64,000 bases of DNA from a virus: the IMG/VR virus record IMGVR_UViG_3300005573_001621, one strand, 5' to 3'. A program made the translations under genes and the position numbers. Below, piece by piece: positions 9,518 through 63,186 of this stretch. Position 1 is the stretch's first letter, and each line of letters begins with the position of its first letter. The notes under the pieces are model-generated. The model saw only the letters and a list, made by a program, of their open reading frames with translations, had not been told where the DNA came from and made no database searches.

Positions 9518-10288
9518 ATGGATATTCTAGTTGATTATTTCCCTGAGTTAGCTTTTAGTGGAGAATTAAGAACTACGGAGAGTCCGACTGGTCCCATTAA
9601 AACGCTAGTTGAAGGGCTTTCGAAAGCTTCATTGACATCAGATTTGAAGCTTTATAAAGTAGGCCCTATCACTCTCCAGCGAGCTAATGTCAGATCCGGC
9701 AACGGAAGATATTATCCAGCTTCTGTTGTTGAAAAAGCTGTTGAAGAAATCCAGCCAATAGTCAAGTCTATGCGATGCATCGGAGAGCTCGACCACGGAA
9801 ATAATCAAGAGCCCTTCCCTAAGTTGAAAGAAGCTTCACACGTTATCACTTCTTTGTGGTTTGATAAGCCATCTAAAACAGTTCGAGGGACTTTTGTTAT
9901 TCTTCCTACTCCTAATGGCCAAGTTCTAAATACTCTTCTGGAAGCTGGAGTCAGCGTAGGAGTTTCAGTTCGTGGAGTAGGCTCTACGACTAAACGTTTA
10001 GTTGAAGGGCAGTCAGTAGAGTATGTCGATCAATTCAAAATCATTACGTACGAGTGTGTTTCGTGGGCTGGATTTAATGATCTGACTATCTCGAAGGAAG
10101 ATAAAAAGCTTGTTTCTACTCTGACTGAAGGGCTTAAGCTCTCAGCTCAAGATCCTTCACAGAGAGAAAAGCTAATTGAATCATTAAAAGAAGTTCAAAT
10201 GTGCTATTCGGGTCAATTACCAAAAAACCCGATGGAACGTTTGATCTTAGTCGCAAAACTTCTTACTAAAAGGAGGTTGCTTAAATGA
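9518..10288 (+). CDS. Prohead core protease (T4 gp21-like)
   Basis: QRAN..NGRYYP, GELDH, SHVIT, ILPTPNG, GVSVRGVGS. Confidence 0.92.
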   Translation: MDILVDYFPELAFSGELRTTESPTGPIKTLVEGLSKASLTSDLKLYKVGPITLQRANVRSGNGRYYPASVVEKAVEEIQPIVKSMRCIGELDHGNNQEPFPKLKEASHVITSLWFDKPSKTVRGTFVILPTPNGQVLNTLLEAGVSVGVSVRGVGSTTKRLVEGQSVEYVDQFKIITYECVSWAGFNDLTISKEDKKLVSTLTEGLKLSAQDPSQREKLIESLKEVQMCYSGQLPKNPMERLILVAKLLTKRRLLK

Positions 10289-11334
10289 ACAGGAAGATAT
10301 CAGAAATTCTTTCTAACGTCCCAATCAGTCTGGCTACTCCTATAGTCTCAGAGAAAACTGATATGACTTTGCTGAATGAGATCTCTGTTCTCCGTCAAAA
10401 CTATCAAGCTCTTAGAGAAGCTTTAAGGCAGATGGGCGAAGTTATTGAAGAGTCTCAAGAACAGGCTATTGCTCCTCTTACTGATGCTGTTAAGCAGTTA
10501 GGAACAATTCAAGAGAGCGCAGAAGGCGAACTTGAAGAGCTCAAGAAACGAGTAGAAGAGCTAGAGAAAGATCAGGCTGACTTAGTCGATGCATTCCAAG
10601 ATCTGTTAGATGTTTATGAAGCTAAAATCGAAGCAGATCGAGCTGCTGAAGAGGACTTGAGAGCTACGATTGAAGAGGCACTTGACTTAGAGACTGCGGT
10701 CGAGGAAGAAGAAGGCGTGAGCGACGAAGTTGTTGAGTTTGGGAACGCCGTTGTTGACGCGCTAGAAGACATCTACTCGAAAGTAAAAGATATTTCAGAT
10801 GCGATTCGGAGCCAGTTTATCGATACAAAGAAGATTATGGAAGCTGGCGAAACTGAGATCGAGACTGAAGAAAAGAAAGAAGAAGAAGAGAAAGGCGAAG
10901 AAGCTGATAAGGAAGCTATTGATGTGCTGGCTGACAAGTTCAAAAAGCTGCAGAAGCAATTGAGAGAGAAAGGCGAAAAAGAAGAGGAAGGAGAGAAAGA
11001 AGAATACGAAGATAAAGAGAAACCAGAAAGTGAAAAAGCTGACAAAGAAAAAGAAACAGACAAGAAAGAAGACGAAGATAAAGAAGAAAAAGCGAAAGAA
11101 GAAGTTCCTCCAGCTCCAGCTCCTCAGACTCAAGCGCCTGTTCCAGAAGAGACTAAGCAGAAGCCGATTTCTGAAACCGAAGAAGAAGAGGAAGACAAGA
11201 CTGGGATTGGGAAATTGATAGATCTTGCGAGGAAAGCTAAGCAAGTGAAGAAGACTCCCCAGCTCCCCCAGGGAGCAGAAGCATCTAAAGTTGAAACGAG
11301 TGGGGCAGTAGAAGAGAAGCCCTTTCGTACATAA
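10285..11334 (+). CDS. Prohead scaffold/core protein (gp22-like)
   Basis: Acidic coiled coil between protease and major capsid; many L/I-x-E sites; E/K low-complexity tail. Confidence 0.75.
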   Translation: MNRKISEILSNVPISLATPIVSEKTDMTLLNEISVLRQNYQALREALRQMGEVIEESQEQAIAPLTDAVKQLGTIQESAEGELEELKKRVEELEKDQADLVDAFQDLLDVYEAKIEADRAAEEDLRATIEEALDLETAVEEEEGVSDEVVEFGNAVVDALEDIYSKVKDISDAIRSQFIDTKKIMEAGETEIETEEKKEEEEKGEEADKEAIDVLADKFKKLQKQLREKGEKEEEGEKEEYEDKEKPESEKADKEKETDKKEDEDKEEKAKEEVPPAPAPQTQAPVPEETKQKPISETEEEEEDKTGIGKLIDLARKAKQVKKTPQLPQGAEASKVETSGAVEEKPFRT

Positions 11335-11452
11335 GGGCTGGTCCATTTACGAGGCTCGTGCAAATCTTTCTTCTTTAGATGAAAGTGAGCCCCAAACTGA
11401 GATGAGTCGGCTAATTGAGCTGACTCGTTCGACAAGGAGAAAAGGAAGATGA
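11312..11452 (+). other. Candidate +1 frameshift extension of the scaffold
   Basis: +1 frame is open 11312-11449 (..PFVHKGWSIYEARANLSSLDESEPQTEMSRLIELTRSTRRKGR*) and ends in an ATGA overlap with the capsid start; CCC TTT CGT at the junction. Confidence 0.5.
11404..11426 (+). promoter_or_regulatory. Stem-loop upstream of the capsid RBS
   Basis: GAGTCGGCT-AATTG-AGCTGACTC, 9 bp with one G.U pair. Confidence 0.4.
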
Positions 11453-12936
11453 TTAAACTATATCCTGATAAAGTAAGTTCTTCTGAGATTAGCTCTGAAG
11501 ATCGGGTGTTGATCGAAGGGCTCTTAAGAGAGAGCAAAACACTTCTGACGGAGTCTGCTCCATCGCCTCTTGCAACGCCAAGCGCCGTTTCAGCTAAGAG
11601 GTATAACTTGAAGGTGCTTCTTGAGAATGAAGCAGCCAGCCTCAAGCTCTTAACTGAAGGCTTGACAACTGGAGCAAATATAGCTCCGTTAGAAACGTAT
11701 ATCTATCCGGTCTTAACTAGGGCTTTAGTTAACTTACTTGCGTATGATCTGGTCTCTGTTCAGCCAGTTACTAGTACTTTAGCTCAAGTTCGTCTCTTAA
11801 AGTTCCGTCACGGCGTCAATCGTGGCAATATCTCTGAGGGAGCTCCAGCATTACCTTCTTTTGAAAGTAATGTTTCGTTCTCCCCATACTACAGCGGCCC
11901 GTATATAGAAGACGAACCCTGGAATCGAGACTCGGCTCAATTTACCGTGTCTGCTTCTGGAGGCACGGCATCGAAGTCAGTAGAGTATCCAATCACTGGT
12001 AATCTTACTCTTAAGGGTACTGTAGGCACAACGAGTTTTGAGCTGGATTTGACTGATGCTTTTGGTTCATCTAATAAGAAAACTATTATAACTAACATCT
12101 ACGCTTATAGAGACACTGGCAACAAAGTAACAATACTCAACGATGATGACGAAGCTGCTACTTTCACGAATGTGACGCTTTCTTACGTAACTTCGACTGA
12201 AGGCTTTCCAATTTCTCCGGAGTTTGAATTGACTCTAGAGAAATATCCGATCGAAGTAGAAGTCAGGAAGCTTCGCGCAACTGCAACGCTAGAAGCTTTG
12301 TTAGATCTTAGTTCTCATAATGTTGCATATGAGAGTGATCTAGCAGAGATTATGTCTGGAGAGTTGAGAGTAGAGCTCGACCGAACTGTTATAAGAGATC
12401 TTCTGAATGCTGCTACGAGTGCCGGCTATACGAGTACCTGGGACGGCGCGATTCCTGCTAATTGGCCAAGGCCCGTTGCAGATTACTACCGGAACTTGAT
12501 AGTAGAGATTGCAAAAGCTTCAGCAAAGATCTACAGACGGACTCGTCGAGCGCCAGCAAACTGGATCGTGACTTCGCCAGATATAGCGGCTCTCTTAGAG
12601 TCTGCGCAGTTGCTAGTTATGGGTGATACAGGCATAACAGATCTCCAGGGCTACGGCTTAATTCCTCTGGGAATTGTTTCAAGGAGATGGCGTTGCTACG
12701 TAGACCCTCTTATGCCAAGGAACAAAATACTCGTAGGTCTGAAAGGGGCAAGTATTTATGATGCAGGAGCGGTATTCGCACCTTATGTTCCGGCCATTCC
12801 AGTTCTCCAGCCGATTCGAGATGTGATGGTTCCTGAATTTGCATTCCACCTTGGGGTCTATACGGCCGCGGGGTATAAAGTCATAGATCCTGGCTTCTAT
12901 CATGTGATTACAGTGAATAATCTGTACGAGGCATAA
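11449..12936 (+). CDS. Major capsid protein (T4 gp23-like)
   Basis: LLEN, DLVSVQP, VRKLRAT.TLEA..DL, E.EL..IMS.E...ELDR.VI, ANWIVTSP, G....RW..YVDP, FAPYVP. Confidence 0.95.
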   Translation: MIKLYPDKVSSSEISSEDRVLIEGLLRESKTLLTESAPSPLATPSAVSAKRYNLKVLLENEAASLKLLTEGLTTGANIAPLETYIYPVLTRALVNLLAYDLVSVQPVTSTLAQVRLLKFRHGVNRGNISEGAPALPSFESNVSFSPYYSGPYIEDEPWNRDSAQFTVSASGGTASKSVEYPITGNLTLKGTVGTTSFELDLTDAFGSSNKKTIITNIYAYRDTGNKVTILNDDDEAATFTNVTLSYVTSTEGFPISPEFELTLEKYPIEVEVRKLRATATLEALLDLSSHNVAYESDLAEIMSGELRVELDRTVIRDLLNAATSAGYTSTWDGAIPANWPRPVADYYRNLIVEIAKASAKIYRRTRRAPANWIVTSPDIAALLESAQLLVMGDTGITDLQGYGLIPLGIVSRRWRCYVDPLMPRNKILVGLKGASIYDAGAVFAPYVPAIPVLQPIRDVMVPEFAFHLGVYTAAGYKVIDPGFYHVITVNNLYEA

Positions 12937-12955: not shown

Positions 12956-13900
12956 ATGGTAGAGCTCGTTTGCTCGGTTTGCGGCAAGACTTATAGACGT
13001 AGGCCGAGTCATGTAGCAGGGAGCAAGTACTGTTCTGTTGAGTGCAAAAGAAAGGGCCTCTCAAAGATCATAACTCGAATCTGCCAGTACTGTGGAAAAG
13101 AGTACTCTGGGACTGCTCACGAGCTCAGCAGAAATCGTTTAAAATTCTGCTCAGCTCGTTGCGCGGCTCTTGCTCGTAAAGATCAAAGAGTCATAACTAG
13201 GGTTTGTCAGCATTGTGGGAAAGAATACTCTGGCTCTCCGTACCAGATGAAATTTCGCAAGAAGTTCTGTTCAGTAGAGTGCATGACTGCAGCACTCTCA
13301 AAGCCCAGAGTGTGCCAGCGATGCGGACAGCTGCTAGAAAAGACTAGAGGAAAGAAGATCAGGCGAAAATATTGCGATTCGTGTCGGCGAGAAGTTCTTA
13401 AGGAAAACGGAAAACGAAATGGAGCTTTAGCTCATGCTAAAGCACTCAATCTCCGTCGTACTCGAATATGCCGTCGATGCGGAAAAGAGTTTGTGCTTCC
13501 TCCTTTAGTCCAATGCCACAAGCGCTATTGTGATGACTGCCGTCGGATAGTTCACCGAGAGAACGGCGCTAAAGGAAATCTGGTTCTTGCTAAGAGAGGC
13601 AAAAGAACTTCAGCTGAGCTTCAAGCTAGGGAGTTCTTAGCATCTCTTGGGCTCCAGTTCGACGAGCAAGTGCAGATCGGTCCTTACGTCGCTGACTTTG
13701 TATTAAAAGATCAAAAAACGATAATCGAAGTCGACGGCGAGTACTGGCATTCTAGACAAGATGCAAAAGAGGCCGATACAGAAAAAGAGCAGTATTTAAG
13801 CTCTCTGGGCTATCGAGTCTTTCGTCTAGCTCAGAGCGCTAATCGTCCCTACGTCTTGACAGAATCGAGCAAACGAGCTCTGCTTGAAGCTTTAGCTTAA
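12956..13900 (+). mobile_element. Free-standing putative homing endonuclease: tandem Zn-ribbon repeats plus DUF559/Vsr-like (EDxHD) nuclease
   Basis: Repeated CxxCGKxY...KFCSxxC units; IGPYVADF..IIEVDGEYWH..D..K..YL..LGYRVFR. Confidence 0.75.
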
Positions 13901-42280: not shown

Positions 42281-42670
42281 ATGAAAAAGCTCTTTGCATT
42301 ACTTTTGTTATCTTCTTTGATCTTTGGAGGAGAGCAGCTTCTTTCAAGGGGAGAAGAAAAACAGATCTTCAGCTTCTCTACTCCCACGACAGATACTCTT
42401 TCTGATACTTTGAGGCTTTCTCCTTTAGTAGAGGGATACTTTTCTGTTCTGAGTGATAATGATCTGACTGCTGGCTCTGTGATTCTTTACGGTTCTTATT
42501 CGTATAACAAAAGCTTGTAGTCTGGCTGGGACTCGCTAGCTGTTTTTGCTTCTGGAGACAGCAATAAAATGGTCGGACTAGATATCCCTGTCTGTAATTA
42601 TCTGCGCTTCAGAATACACTTAAGCGCAGATGCATCAGGGTCTTTCAAAGCTCAAGTTTTTGCTAAGTGA
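42281..42670 (+). pseudogene. Signal-peptide beta protein interrupted by an in-frame TAG (nonsense allele or readthrough)
   Basis: MKKLFALLLLSSLIFG signal; TAG at 42518-42520 followed by 49 sense codons to TGA at 42668-42670, then the SD of the next gene. Confidence 0.65.
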
Positions 42671-61764: not shown

Positions 61765-63186
61765 ATGATGAACTTCAAACTCACTATTTTAAAAGATCTT
61801 ATCTTTGCTAGATCTTTCTGTCTAGCTGACTACGATCCTGACTTAGAGCTTGAATTTACTAAAGATTTTGTTCTTAAGCCGCTAGATGAAGCTGAAGCGG
61901 TAGTAGTCTTAAAAGAAACTGAAGTCTCAGAGAAAGAAATCCCTCGAGCGAAGTTTTTAGTTTCTAAAAATCTTTTAGATTTAGAAAAATATCCTTCATT
62001 TAAGCTAGCAGATCAACAGATAGCTGACTCTTTCTTTCTGTATGAAAGAAAAGGGCTGAAAAAGATCTTAATCATCACTACTCAGACTGCTGGAGTTTAT
62101 TACTATCGGCTAGAGATCCCTTATACTCGGCTCTTAGAAGAGTATCCACAGTTTGCTCTTAAAGTCACCAGAATCCCGCCTTCGATCTATAGTATTCAGT
62201 CAGCAGATCTAATAATCATCCAGAGACTCTTGACGATGACTGCTCCTGGTTATGAGCTGGGTCTGATTCGATACGCTCATGCTCTAGGTAAGAAGGTCGT
62301 CTATGAGACTGATGACTTAGAATACGAAGCAAAAGTGCTCCCTCAATATACTGCAATCGCAAAAATTCCCTTTCTTTTTGATCTTCTAAAGTCTGCGATT
62401 TCTTCTGTTGATCTCGTTATAGCGTCGACGCCTATCTTAGCTGATAACTTACGGTGCTTAAATCCTAACGTTCGAGTGTTAGAAAATCACATCGATCTTT
62501 CAGCAAATATGTGGAGAGCTCCGAAAGCTGAGCACGAAGGAATTCATTTTGGATGGGCTGGGGGAAGCACTCACTATTATGATATGCAGATCATTTTAAG
62601 AAGCCTCAGACCGTTGTTAGATCGAGTTCCTAATAGCAAATTTGTTTTAGCAGGGTATGATAAGAGAGGGTCTATACTCCAAGTCGTACAAGATCCGCAG
62701 AGTGGAGGACTTCGTGTAGTATCTAAGCCACTCCCAGAAGAAGAGAACATTTGGTTTAAGCTCGTAAAAGAGCTCGAAACTGAGATCGGAAAAGACCGCT
62801 TAATTGTTCAAGAGGCTCTCCCTATTTATGAGTACGGACAGCATTATAAAACTATGGATGTCGTCTTGATCCCTCTGGGAGATTCTCAATTTCATGCTTC
62901 GAAGTCTTGCCTCAAGCTTTTAGAAGCTGGAGCTTACTCTTTACCAGTCGTCTGCTCGGATGTTCCTCCTTATAATCAAACTATTACTCATAAAGTCAAT
63001 GGATTTTTAGCATCTAAACCCAAACATTGGATTCAATACGGAGTTCTCTTAGCTTCTAGACCTGATCTCAGAAAAGAAATCGGAGAGAGCCTCAATAAGC
63101 TTATCAGAGAGAAGTACTCGTCTGAACTCGTCGGGTCTAAGCTAGCTAAAATTTTAGTAGAAGTCTTGAATCAAGAGGAGAAGTAA
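61765..63186 (+). CDS. Glycosyltransferase (GT-B, GT4-like) with N-terminal extension
   Basis: VVYETDD, DLVIAST..LA, VLENHID, GWAGGSTH, SK.CLKLLEAGA...PVVCSDV.PY. Confidence 0.85.
   Translation: MMNFKLTILKDLIFARSFCLADYDPDLELEFTKDFVLKPLDEAEAVVVLKETEVSEKEIPRAKFLVSKNLLDLEKYPSFKLADQQIADSFFLYERKGLKKILIITTQTAGVYYYRLEIPYTRLLEEYPQFALKVTRIPPSIYSIQSADLIIIQRLLTMTAPGYELGLIRYAHALGKKVVYETDDLEYEAKVLPQYTAIAKIPFLFDLLKSAISSVDLVIASTPILADNLRCLNPNVRVLENHIDLSANMWRAPKAEHEGIHFGWAGGSTHYYDMQIILRSLRPLLDRVPNSKFVLAGYDKRGSILQVVQDPQSGGLRVVSKPLPEEENIWFKLVKELETEIGKDRLIVQEALPIYEYGQHYKTMDVVLIPLGDSQFHASKSCLKLLEAGAYSLPVVCSDVPPYNQTITHKVNGFLASKPKHWIQYGVLLASRPDLRKEIGESLNKLIREKYSSELVGSKLAKILVEVLNQEEK

Follow-up and report, generated by a model that had tools for sequence, protein, structure and literature searches.

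Does a phage scaffold gene end at its own stop codon, or does part of it continue in another frame up to the capsid gene? The question is raised by a T4-like phage from the IMG/VR virus record IMGVR_UViG_3300005573_001621, of which a 64,000-nt stretch (hereafter the window) was analyzed. A first-pass annotation, made from the sequence alone, noted that the scaffold ORF stops at 11334, that the +1 frame is open from 11312, and that this frame ends in an ATGA overlap with the capsid gene. It proposed a +1 frameshift, by re-pairing of tRNA-Phe from TTT to TTC, that yields two scaffold isoforms, with and without a capsid-binding C-terminal helix. The observation proved to be correct. The frameshift interpretation is supported, although by comparison with relatives and not by the window alone, and we consider a programmed +1 frameshift probable.

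The Head Module and the Overlapping Frames

All features described here are on the plus strand. The gene at 9518–10288 encodes a prohead maturation protease of the T4 gp21 type (256 aa; Pfam Peptidase_S77, E 6.5e-16; PHROG 207 head maturation protease, E 1.5e-28). The gene at 11449–12936 encodes a major capsid protein of the Gp23 family (495 aa; Pfam Gp23, E 2.1e-48; PHROG 138). Between them lies the ORF at 10285–11334, whose 0-frame product of 349 aa is acidic, has coiled-coil character and ends in EEKPFRT. This ORF has no relevant Pfam or PHROG hit, only sub-threshold matches at chance level (SKA2 and a tape-measure PHROG), and a profile search found only clade members. It has no detected sequence homology to gp22, and its assignment as a gp22-type prohead scaffold (core) protein is by position only. 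It is syntenic with the scaffolds of two related contigs, L002 and L004, and with the related scaffold protein P0126.

The 0-frame reads GAA GAG AAG CCC TTT CGT ACA TAA, with the stop at 11332–11334. The +1 frame has a TAG at 11309–11311 and is then open from 11312 to a TGA at 11450–11452, which overlaps the capsid ATG at 11449–11451 to give ATGA. Its translation is KRSPFVHKGWSIYEARANLSSLDESEPQTEMSRLIELTRSTRRKGR, as the first-pass annotation had it. Such ATGA overlaps occur at 11 of 81 plus-strand gene junctions in the window. The median gap between genes is a few nt, and the 114-nt gap between the scaffold and capsid genes is the third longest of the 81. The Shine-Dalgarno sequence of the capsid gene, AAGGAG at 11434–11439, lies within the last tail codons, 9 nt before the ATG. 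The two frames are both open only in the 23 nt at 11312–11334, so the shift must occur here. Within this stretch only CCC_U and UUU_C allow a tRNA to re-pair in the +1 frame, and the proposed shift site is CCC_UUU_CGU at 11320–11328, read as CCU_UUC after the slip. The +1-frame tail at 11327–11452 consists of 41 codons plus TGA (VHKGWSIYEAR to MSRLIELTRSTRRKGR), and the trans-frame product (P0127) would be 388 aa long. It would carry the junction peptide EEKPFVHK and peptides such as GWSIYEAR and ANLSSLDESEPQTEMSR. In the window, the +1 ORF has no ATG, GTG or TTG before tail codon 26.

Openness on its own is weak evidence. A 41-codon open frame of this composition has P = 0.065 by shuffling in the window alone, while the other two frames hold 4 and 5 stops in the same stretch. 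The signal exceeds chance only once relatives are added.

Conservation in Relatives

Two diverged lineages of uncultured relatives have the same layout. In the first, represented by L002 and L003 (two samples; capsid 66–67% identical), the 0-frame ends in EEPFRGASPV, and from PF the +1 frame runs 42 codons to the capsid ATG. In the second, L006 (a different project; capsid 49–50% identical), the 0-frame ends in EKPFRGTEGETGV, and the +1 frame runs 38 codons to 15 nt before the capsid ATG. The probabilities of an open frame by shuffling are 0.065, 0.048 and 0.025 for the window, L002/L003 and L006, a product of 8e-5. However, only these three lineages with DNA show the layout, and they may share it by descent, so they are not three independent origins. 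The first-pass annotation had named loss of the +1 ORF in relatives, or a single-base error, as grounds for rejecting its reading. The relatives carry both the +1 ORF and the TTT CG site, and an independent Logan assembly of the same phage (L001, SRR5248875) is identical over 5,429 nt, which makes a single-base error very unlikely.

The site itself, CCCTTTCGT, is the only invariant 9-mer in the three-way DNA alignment, and flanking identity is near saturation. This is so although CCC, TTT or CGT are disfavored codons in one or other of these phages. CCC is 0 of 41 Pro codons and CGT 1 of 18 Arg codons in the other L006 genes, TTT is 6 of 33 Phe codons in L002, and in the window CCC is the rarest Pro codon and CGT is 4.7 per 1000. 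CCC and TTT are exactly the synonymous choices that permit +1 re-pairing. In contrast, CGT is the commonest Arg codon in L002 (13 of 46), so the argument from a hungry A-site codon does not hold in every lineage. Part of the CGT conservation can be explained by the C needed for UUC plus the GU of the +1 Val codon.

The tails are conserved in a frame-specific manner. The window and L002 tails align only in the +1 frame (score 49 against 20 and 18; 0/500 shuffles). Changes between them include Ser TCC to AGT, Arg CGG to Lys AAG and Arg CGT to Lys AAA, which points to selection on the amino acids. The ratio of nonsynonymous to synonymous change between these two tails is uninformative because both rates are near saturation (pN/pS, 0.50 against 0.66). 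The L006 tail is not significantly similar to the other tails.

The window tail contains the motif TEMSRLIELTR at 11396–11428, which corresponds to SPMDKLLSLAK in the L002 tail. The motif, [ST]PMxxL[IL]xx[AT][KR], lies in frame 0 at the scaffold C-terminus of two other relatives, L005 (ending in QQPFISPITPMGDLINKAKKIL, with PMGDLINKAK) and L004 (ending in PPMSDLIKKVRDQFKEDKKE, with PMSDLIKKVR), whose scaffolds end 6 nt before the capsid gene. The S77 protease ends with the same motif in all four relatives with data. In the window it is NPMERLILVAK (10226–10258), and it is SPMEKLILMSK in L002, SPMGKLLIISK in L004 and SPMEKLILITE in the related protease P0123. In six-frame searches the L002 +1 tail matches the protease motif at 0/2000 shuffles. 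The window tail matches the four protease motifs at 52–262 of 2000 shuffles, depending on the query, but the best match is always at the same +1-frame spot. The L006 tail does not match the motif significantly. The 0-frame product of the window has an internal helix, GIGKLIDLARKAK (11203–11241), that resembles the protease and tail motif and aligns with DKMAALLRLSKDA of L002. The unshifted product may thus keep one copy of the motif, and the tail might be dispensable.

Searches for further relatives added little. A blastn search of phage records found nothing. Searches for related loci in viral, metagenome and genome contigs gave only one distant locus, L007, whose scaffold is in frame. A word-indexed search with the scaffold was swamped by low-complexity candidates and returned only the scaffold itself, a protease search at E <= 1e-20 returned only the protease itself and P0123, and an exhaustive profile search with two scaffolds added only P0126. 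The lineage of P0002 and P0126 (SRR31131354) is known only to have DEPFR, then 24 more residues, then a 115-nt gap.

Proposed Mechanism and Function

In the most likely reading, most ribosomes would read CCC UUU CGU ACA UAA and release the 349-aa scaffold. A fraction would slip one base forward on CCC_UUU_C, with peptidyl-tRNA-Phe re-pairing from UUU to UUC. This is the junction that the first-pass annotation proposed, and it fits the 23-nt overlap. We add that the preceding tRNA-Pro can re-pair from CCC to CCU as well. The shifted ribosomes would then read GUA CAU AAG and onward for 41 more codons and terminate at the UGA that overlaps the capsid AUG. The resulting 388-aa product (EEKPF-VHKGWS to TEMSRLIELTRSTRRKGR) would gain a tail whose last helix carries the motif that also ends the prohead protease. 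It is proposed that this motif is a shared address that ties scaffold and protease to the same partner inside the assembling head, which could be the capsid protein interior or propeptide, or the core itself. The ORF geometry, the conservation of the site, the frame-specific conservation of the tail and the sharing of the motif are established by the sequence comparisons. The slip itself, its efficiency, the trans-frame protein, the coexistence of two isoforms and the binding partner, including any binding to the capsid, are inferred.

Two further claims of the first-pass annotation concern the tail. Protease-type (L/I)xE sites are visibly present in it (IYE, LDE, LIE). The amphipathic terminal helix is only partly borne out. 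A single-sequence AlphaFold2 model (mean pLDDT 66) places a helix on MSRLIELTRSTRRKG and also predicts the internal motif-like helix, but the helical hydrophobic moment of the window tail is not significant (76/1000 shuffles). A predicted complex of the capsid protein with the tail gave scores of 0.00, 0.61 and 0.00, which count neither for nor against binding.

As for stimulators of the shift, CGT as a possible slow A-site codon is rare in the window and L006 but common in L002. No conserved downstream RNA structure and no upstream SD-like element was found in the three lineages, and folds downstream of the site were not better than shuffles except in L002 (z = -2.2). In all three lineages the shift site can pair with a downstream AAGGG/GAAGG element, but that hairpin includes the site itself and we do not claim it as a stimulator. 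In-frame TTT_CGT is not avoided in other window genes (6 observed against 2.7 expected), and a second in-frame CCC_TTT_C exists at 62368. The site alone is therefore unlikely to give a high shift rate. A genome-wide rule that TTT_CGT always shifts is rejected, because five other in-frame TTT_CGT sites continue in frame. Transcriptional slippage is rejected because there is no homopolymer longer than 3 nt. Bypassing is rejected because a matching landing codon exists only near the end of the tail, which would skip the conserved part.

Alternative Explanations

An unlikely alternative is that the gap holds a separate small gene, whose peptide of about 31–34 aa with the protease-like motif would be initiated on its own within the +1 ORF (AUU in the window, GUG in L002 and L006). 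L006 has AAGGAG, then 6 nt, then a GTG in the +1 frame. L002 has a weaker equivalent, GGAG/AAGGG upstream of an in-frame GTG, and the window has AAGGG 7 nt before an in-frame ATT. The absence of an independent start is thus less clean in L002 and L006 than in the window. However, the candidate starts are not at homologous positions, since in L006 the start lies before the FKSF element while in L002 and the window it lies after KGWS. KGWS, upstream of the candidate starts, is kept through the synonymous TCC to AGT Ser change. This reading explains neither the invariant 9-mer made of disfavored codons nor the in-frame PF-I...motif arrangement of L005. Gene callers placed no separate gene in the gap in L001 and L002, and the 5'-truncated call at 2–136 in L006 is the +1 ORF itself, read through the shift site.

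It is equally unlikely that the tail is a relic, in which a one-base mutation in an ancestor cut the tail off the scaffold, the internal helix took over its role and the +1 ORF is an untranslated remnant. The frameshift-type scaffolds do have the internal in-frame motif-like helix about 40 residues upstream. More distant relatives (L007, T4) and the L004/L005 pair have uninterrupted scaffolds, so the interrupted form is probably derived. A remnant should collect stops and indels. Instead, the frame is open for 41, 42 and 38 codons in lineages whose flanking DNA is near saturation (46% nt identity), and the frame-specific tail similarity, the L002 match to the protease motif and the 9-mer that is invariant against local codon preference all speak against it.

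Still less likely is a non-coding leader of the capsid gene with a +1 frame open by chance. The P of 0.065 for the window alone, the purine-rich SD region that makes up the last tail codons and a possible 7-bp hairpin (11318–11339) are compatible with it. However, no promoter-like site, no plus-strand terminator-like site and no T4-type late-promoter box (TATAAATA) lies in the gap, folding energies are not better than shuffles in two of three lineages, and conservation is frame-specific and at the protein level. A sequencing or assembly error, with one base wrongly inserted near 11326 in an ordinary uninterrupted scaffold gene, has nothing in its favor beyond the general frequency of indel errors and is very unlikely given the identical independent assembly, the same frame break at the same 9-mer in L002, L003 and L006, and a 0-frame stop that is positionally conserved across the three lineages, overlapping the +1 [H/Y/F]-K codons.

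Comparison With Known Systems

The core UUU_CGU is identical to that of the influenza A PA-X site UCC_UUU_CGU, which the first-pass annotation correctly cited as a +1 site, and PA-X-like UUU_CGN sites are predicted in amalgaviruses, fijiviruses and chronic bee paralysis virus (PMC3498833). In PA-X, and in the mechanism proposed for the phage, the P-site tRNA-Phe re-pairs from UUU to UUC. In both there is no adjacent stop codon and no known RNA structure, the site is conserved at synonymous positions, and CGU is rare (4.7 per 1000 in the window, 4.5 in human), although not in L002. The phage site differs in its setting of a DNA phage and bacterial translation, in a shifted ORF that is a short C-terminal tail of a structural protein, and in its upstream CCC, which can itself re-pair to CCU. 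In PA-X, changing UCC to CCC lowered shifting by 40–70%.

In bacteria, UUU_Y (Schwartz and Curran 1997, cited in PMC5009743 and PMC3789692) and, for tRNA-Pro, CC[C/U]-[C/U] (PMC4519876; PMC7577736) are documented +1-prone tetranucleotides. The phage site places these two back to back in phase (CCC_U + UUU_C). Those reports concern error-level or reporter-level shifting (about 1%) and do not describe a conserved, utilized tandem site, and we found no description of a used CCC_UUU_C site.

The +1 frameshifts in cps and tsh of Listeria phage PSA and the -1 frameshifts in T7 10A/10B and the T3 capsid gene (PMC5009743) recode, as is proposed here, the 3' end of an abundant morphogenetic gene to give a minor C-terminally extended isoform at a fixed ratio. 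PSA shifts on a proline codon just 5' of a stop codon or a pseudoknot. Here neither is adjacent, as the 0-frame stop lies 1, 5 and 8 codons after the CGT in the three lineages and no significant fold was found, and the gene is the internal scaffold and not the capsid or tail tube protein. The site is also not of the prfB type (CUU_UGA with an SD-like element 3 nt upstream), since the upstream sequences GAAGAGAAG, GAAAGAAGAG and CCTGAAAAA have no GGAGG and no adjacent stop.

In phage lambda C/Nu3, P2 gpO and the HK97-type protease with a C-terminal targeting segment, protease and scaffold share a C-terminal capsid-directed region. Here too, protease and scaffold end in the same short motif, which implies a common docking partner inside the prohead. 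In lambda and P2 the shared end comes from nested in-frame genes, whereas here the two are separate genes with a duplicated motif, and in three lineages the scaffold copy is reachable only through the +1 frame. The gene order of S77 protease, acidic scaffold and Gp23-fold capsid is that of the T4 gp21-gp22-gp23 module, and (L/I)xE sites are visible in the capsid N-terminal region as well as in the tail. T4 gp22, however, is uninterrupted and ends 18 nt before gene 23, and the T4 gp21 and gp22 ends (YMALAEAMKKAL, IVSVYAKVASRF) do not show the [ST]PMxxL[IL] motif.

Implications for T4-Like Head Assembly

Recoding at the 3' ends of phage capsid and tail genes is known. We found no report of it for a scaffold gene or for any T4-like head module, and a large recoding review has no occurrence of "scaffold" in the text that was searched (PMC5009743). 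The site would be the first bacterial or phage use of the PA-X-type UUU_CGU motif, and its CCC_UUU_C form suggests a two-tRNA forward slip. Such a tail is missed by gene callers in every contig examined with the full scaffold. The C-terminal motif shared by protease and scaffold is a concrete candidate for how core proteins are targeted into T4-like proheads, a process that a recent T4 review calls "mysterious" (PMC9958956). A more tentative possibility is that CCC_UUU_C is a tandem +1 slippery heptamer, a forward-direction counterpart of the -1 X_XXY_YYZ motif, on which the adjacent tRNA-Pro and tRNA-Phe would re-pair together. The phage clade would use it, without a stop codon or RNA structure, to set a fixed ratio of untailed to tailed scaffold, and the tail would carry a head-core address motif shared with the prohead protease. 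If so, it would identify the long-sought signal that localizes gp21/gp22-type proteins in a T4-like prohead core.

The Scaffold Gene and Its Overlapping Frames

The region is the head module of a T4-like phage. The ORF at 9518-10288 encodes an S77 (T4 gp21-type) prohead protease (Pfam E 6.5e-16; PHROG 207 E 1.5e-28) and the ORF at 11449-12936 encodes a Gp23-family major capsid protein (Pfam E 2.1e-48). The acidic, coiled-coil ORF between them (10285-11334, 349 aa) has no relevant family hit, and it sits where T4 has gene 22, the scaffold. The first-pass annotation placed the scaffold stop at 11334 and described a +1 frame that is open from 11312 and ends in an ATGA overlap with the capsid gene. 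These coordinates are exact and the observation is confirmed. The 0-frame reads GAG AAG CCC TTT CGT ACA TAA, with the stop at 11332-11334, while the +1 frame has a TAG at 11309-11311 and is then open to a TGA at 11450-11452 that overlaps the capsid ATG at 11449. ATGA overlaps occur at 11 of the 81 plus-strand junctions. The 114-nt gap between scaffold and capsid genes is the third longest in a genome whose median gap is a few nt. By itself the open frame is weak evidence, with P = 0.065 by shuffling. Another unusually long apparent gap (109 nt) lies between plus-strand ORFs at 42520-42630. It coincides with a noted in-frame TAG inside a beta-rich protein, so it may be a second recoding or pseudogene candidate in the same genome. 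An assembly error is very unlikely to account for the frame break, since a Logan assembly of run SRR5248875 (L001) is identical to the window over all 5,429 nt, including the site, and the same break is present in relatives from other projects.

Relatives of the Head Module

The capsid protein has only five close relatives among 5.8 billion proteins, at 49-67% identity, and the next hits are at 31% or less. Genomic context could be read for four of the five. In the window, the 0-frame scaffold ends in EEKPFRT, the +1 frame from PF runs for 41 codons to the TGA that overlaps the ATG, and the gap to the capsid ATG is 114 nt. In the related locus L002/L003, recovered from two samples, the 0-frame ends in EEPFRGASPV, the +1 frame from PF reads VERVRYKGWSLVEKLSHSAPKSQDVSPMDKLLSLAKGDKKNG over 42 codons running into the ATG, and the gap is 101 nt. 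In the related locus L006, the 0-frame ends in EKPFRGTEGETGV, the +1 frame reads VEQKEKPVFKSFLKPKNKKEIELTTINLLKTAKKLFKS over 38 codons with a stop codon that ends 15 nt before the ATG, and the gap is 103 nt. On this 5'-truncated contig, the public gene caller chose the +1-frame ORF (L006:2-136, 44 aa, through the shift site) as the partial gene rather than the 0-frame scaffold end. The loci L005 and L004 each have one uninterrupted scaffold ORF, ending in QQPFISPITPMGDLINKAKKIL and PPMSDLIKKVRDQFKEDKKE, respectively, so that no +1 frame is needed, and in both the gap is 6 nt. The fifth relative is the P0002 contig, for which no DNA is available. Its scaffold P0126 ends in DEPFRESEEKPEEESDEGDSDGKSKASS and is followed by a 115-nt gap.

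In a capsid tree the six form one clade (100/100), in which L004 and L005 are a tight sister pair and the rest is unresolved. More distant phages have uninterrupted scaffolds, namely the distant locus L007 with a 29-nt gap and T4 with an 18-nt gap. The interrupted form is therefore probably derived, and it has been kept through long divergence, with capsid branch lengths of 0.2-0.9. The region downstream of the capsid gene also varies. In the window, a 314-aa ORF directly after the capsid gene (12956-13900) has zinc-ribbon repeats and a Vsr/DUF559-type endonuclease domain (PHROG HNH/homing endonuclease). It is absent at this position in the P0002 contig, L002, L004, L005, and L006, where a ~105-116-aa gene follows the capsid gene directly. 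It is probably a mobile homing endonuclease insertion.

The Proposed Shift Site

In a three-way DNA alignment of the scaffold 3' end and gap (the window, L002, and L006), the only invariant block is CCCTTTCGT. Elsewhere, aligned codons of the window and L002 tails are 46% identical, which is close to saturation. The block is built from codons that are disfavored in one or other of these phages. In L006 genes, CCC is 0 of 41 Pro codons and CGT is 1 of 18 Arg codons. In L002, TTT is 6 of 33 Phe codons and CCC is 7 of 76 Pro codons, although CGT is common in this lineage. In the window, CCC is the rarest Pro codon (6.4 per 1000) and CGT is 4.7 per 1000. The use of CCC rather than CCU/A/G, and of UUU rather than UUC, are precisely the synonymous choices that let tRNA-Pro (CCC to CCU) and tRNA-Phe (UUU to UUC) re-pair one base forward. 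The remaining C-G-U is needed for UUC and for the +1-frame Val codon (GUA or GUG). In the window the shift can only happen within 11312-11334, and no other codon there allows re-pairing. Both tetranucleotides are documented +1-prone sequences in bacteria, UUU_Ynn (PMC5009743) and CC[C/U]-[C/U] (PMC4519876), while UCC_UUU_CGU is the proven influenza PA-X site, with about 1% efficiency (PMC3498833).

High efficiency from the site alone is unlikely. In-frame TTT_CGT is not depleted elsewhere in the window (6 observed against 2.7 expected). The only other in-frame CCC_TTT_C in the window lies at 62368 (62368-62388), where it is followed by TT (CCC TTT CTT) and the +1 frame stops after 6 codons. 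No conserved stimulatory structure was found. In all three frameshift lineages (window 11318-11339; L002:2037-2066; L006:15-32) the CCCUU(U) of the shift site can pair with a downstream purine-rich, SD-like AAGGG/GAAGG element. The window stem is 7 bp (AGCCCUU/AAGGGCU) with an 8-nt loop, and TAAGGG also contains the 0-frame stop.

Protein-Level Constraint on the +1-Frame Tail

Translations of the window and L002 gaps align with a score of 49 in the +1 frame, while the other two same-frame pairs score 20 and 18. No shuffle out of 500 reaches 49 in any frame. Substitutions between the two tails include Ser TCC to AGT, Arg CGG to Lys AAG, Arg CGT to Lys AAA, and synonymous Leu and Gly changes. 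The L006 tail is too diverged to score. We take the similarity between the window and L002 to mean that the tail is under protein-level constraint in the +1 frame.

A Motif Shared With the Prohead Protease

The tails end in a motif [ST]PMxxL[IL]xx[AT][KR]. The instances are TEMSRLIELTR in the window, SPMDKLLSLAK in L002, TPMGDLINKAK in L005, and PPMSDLIKKVR in L004. The S77 protease of every relative with data ends with the same motif. The instances are NPMERLILVAK in the window (9518-10288), SPMEKLILMSK in L002 (L002:3-767), SPMGKLLIISK in L004 (L004:3405-4136), and SPMEKLILITE in the related protease P0123. The protease ends of this clade were also summarized as [NS]PMxKL[IL]. All six frames of each gap were scanned with the four protease motifs. 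The best hit in L002 is the +1-frame tail, at 0/2000 shuffles for all four queries. The best hit in the window is always the +1-frame TEMSRLIELTR, at 52-262 of 2000 shuffles depending on the query. L006 is not significant.

A scaffold and a protease that share a C-terminal address are familiar from lambda C/Nu3 and P2 gpO. Here the sharing argues that the +1 tail is a real, functional protein segment, and we infer that it docks to a common partner in the prohead. A complex prediction returned no verdict and does not enter this inference. The frameshift-type scaffolds also carry an in-frame, motif-like predicted helix about 40 residues upstream, GIGKLIDLARKAK in the window and DKMAALLRLSKDA in L002. 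The short form may therefore not be address-less, and the tail could add a second copy.

Interpretation

A separate small gene in the gap remains a possible, though unlikely, alternative to frameshifting, because L006, and more weakly L002, have an SD-like element plus a GTG inside the +1 ORF. However, those starts are not positionally homologous, the window lacks a canonical start, and this reading does not explain the invariant 9-mer.

The first-pass annotation had read the junction as a probable +1 frameshift that extends the scaffold to the capsid start, and the comparison with relatives supports that reading. The most likely mechanism, which we consider probable, is a programmed +1 slip on CCC_UUU_C that yields a 388-aa tailed scaffold (P0127, the trans-frame product) beside the 349-aa form. 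The arrangement of the frames, the invariance of the site, the frame-specific similarity of the window and L002 tails, and the sharing of the motif are established by the sequences, whereas the slip itself, the presence of both scaffold forms, and the docking of the tail are inferred from them. In mechanism the proposed slip resembles PA-X-type and bacterial UUU_Y/CCC_U shifting, and in logic it resembles the PSA and T7 capsid isoforms. It differs from both in the gene involved, in the apparent tandem re-pairing, and in the end motif shared with the protease. The T4 gp21 and gp22 ends do not show this motif. In the phage clade examined here, the motif that ends both the S77 prohead proteases and the scaffold is a candidate head-core targeting signal.
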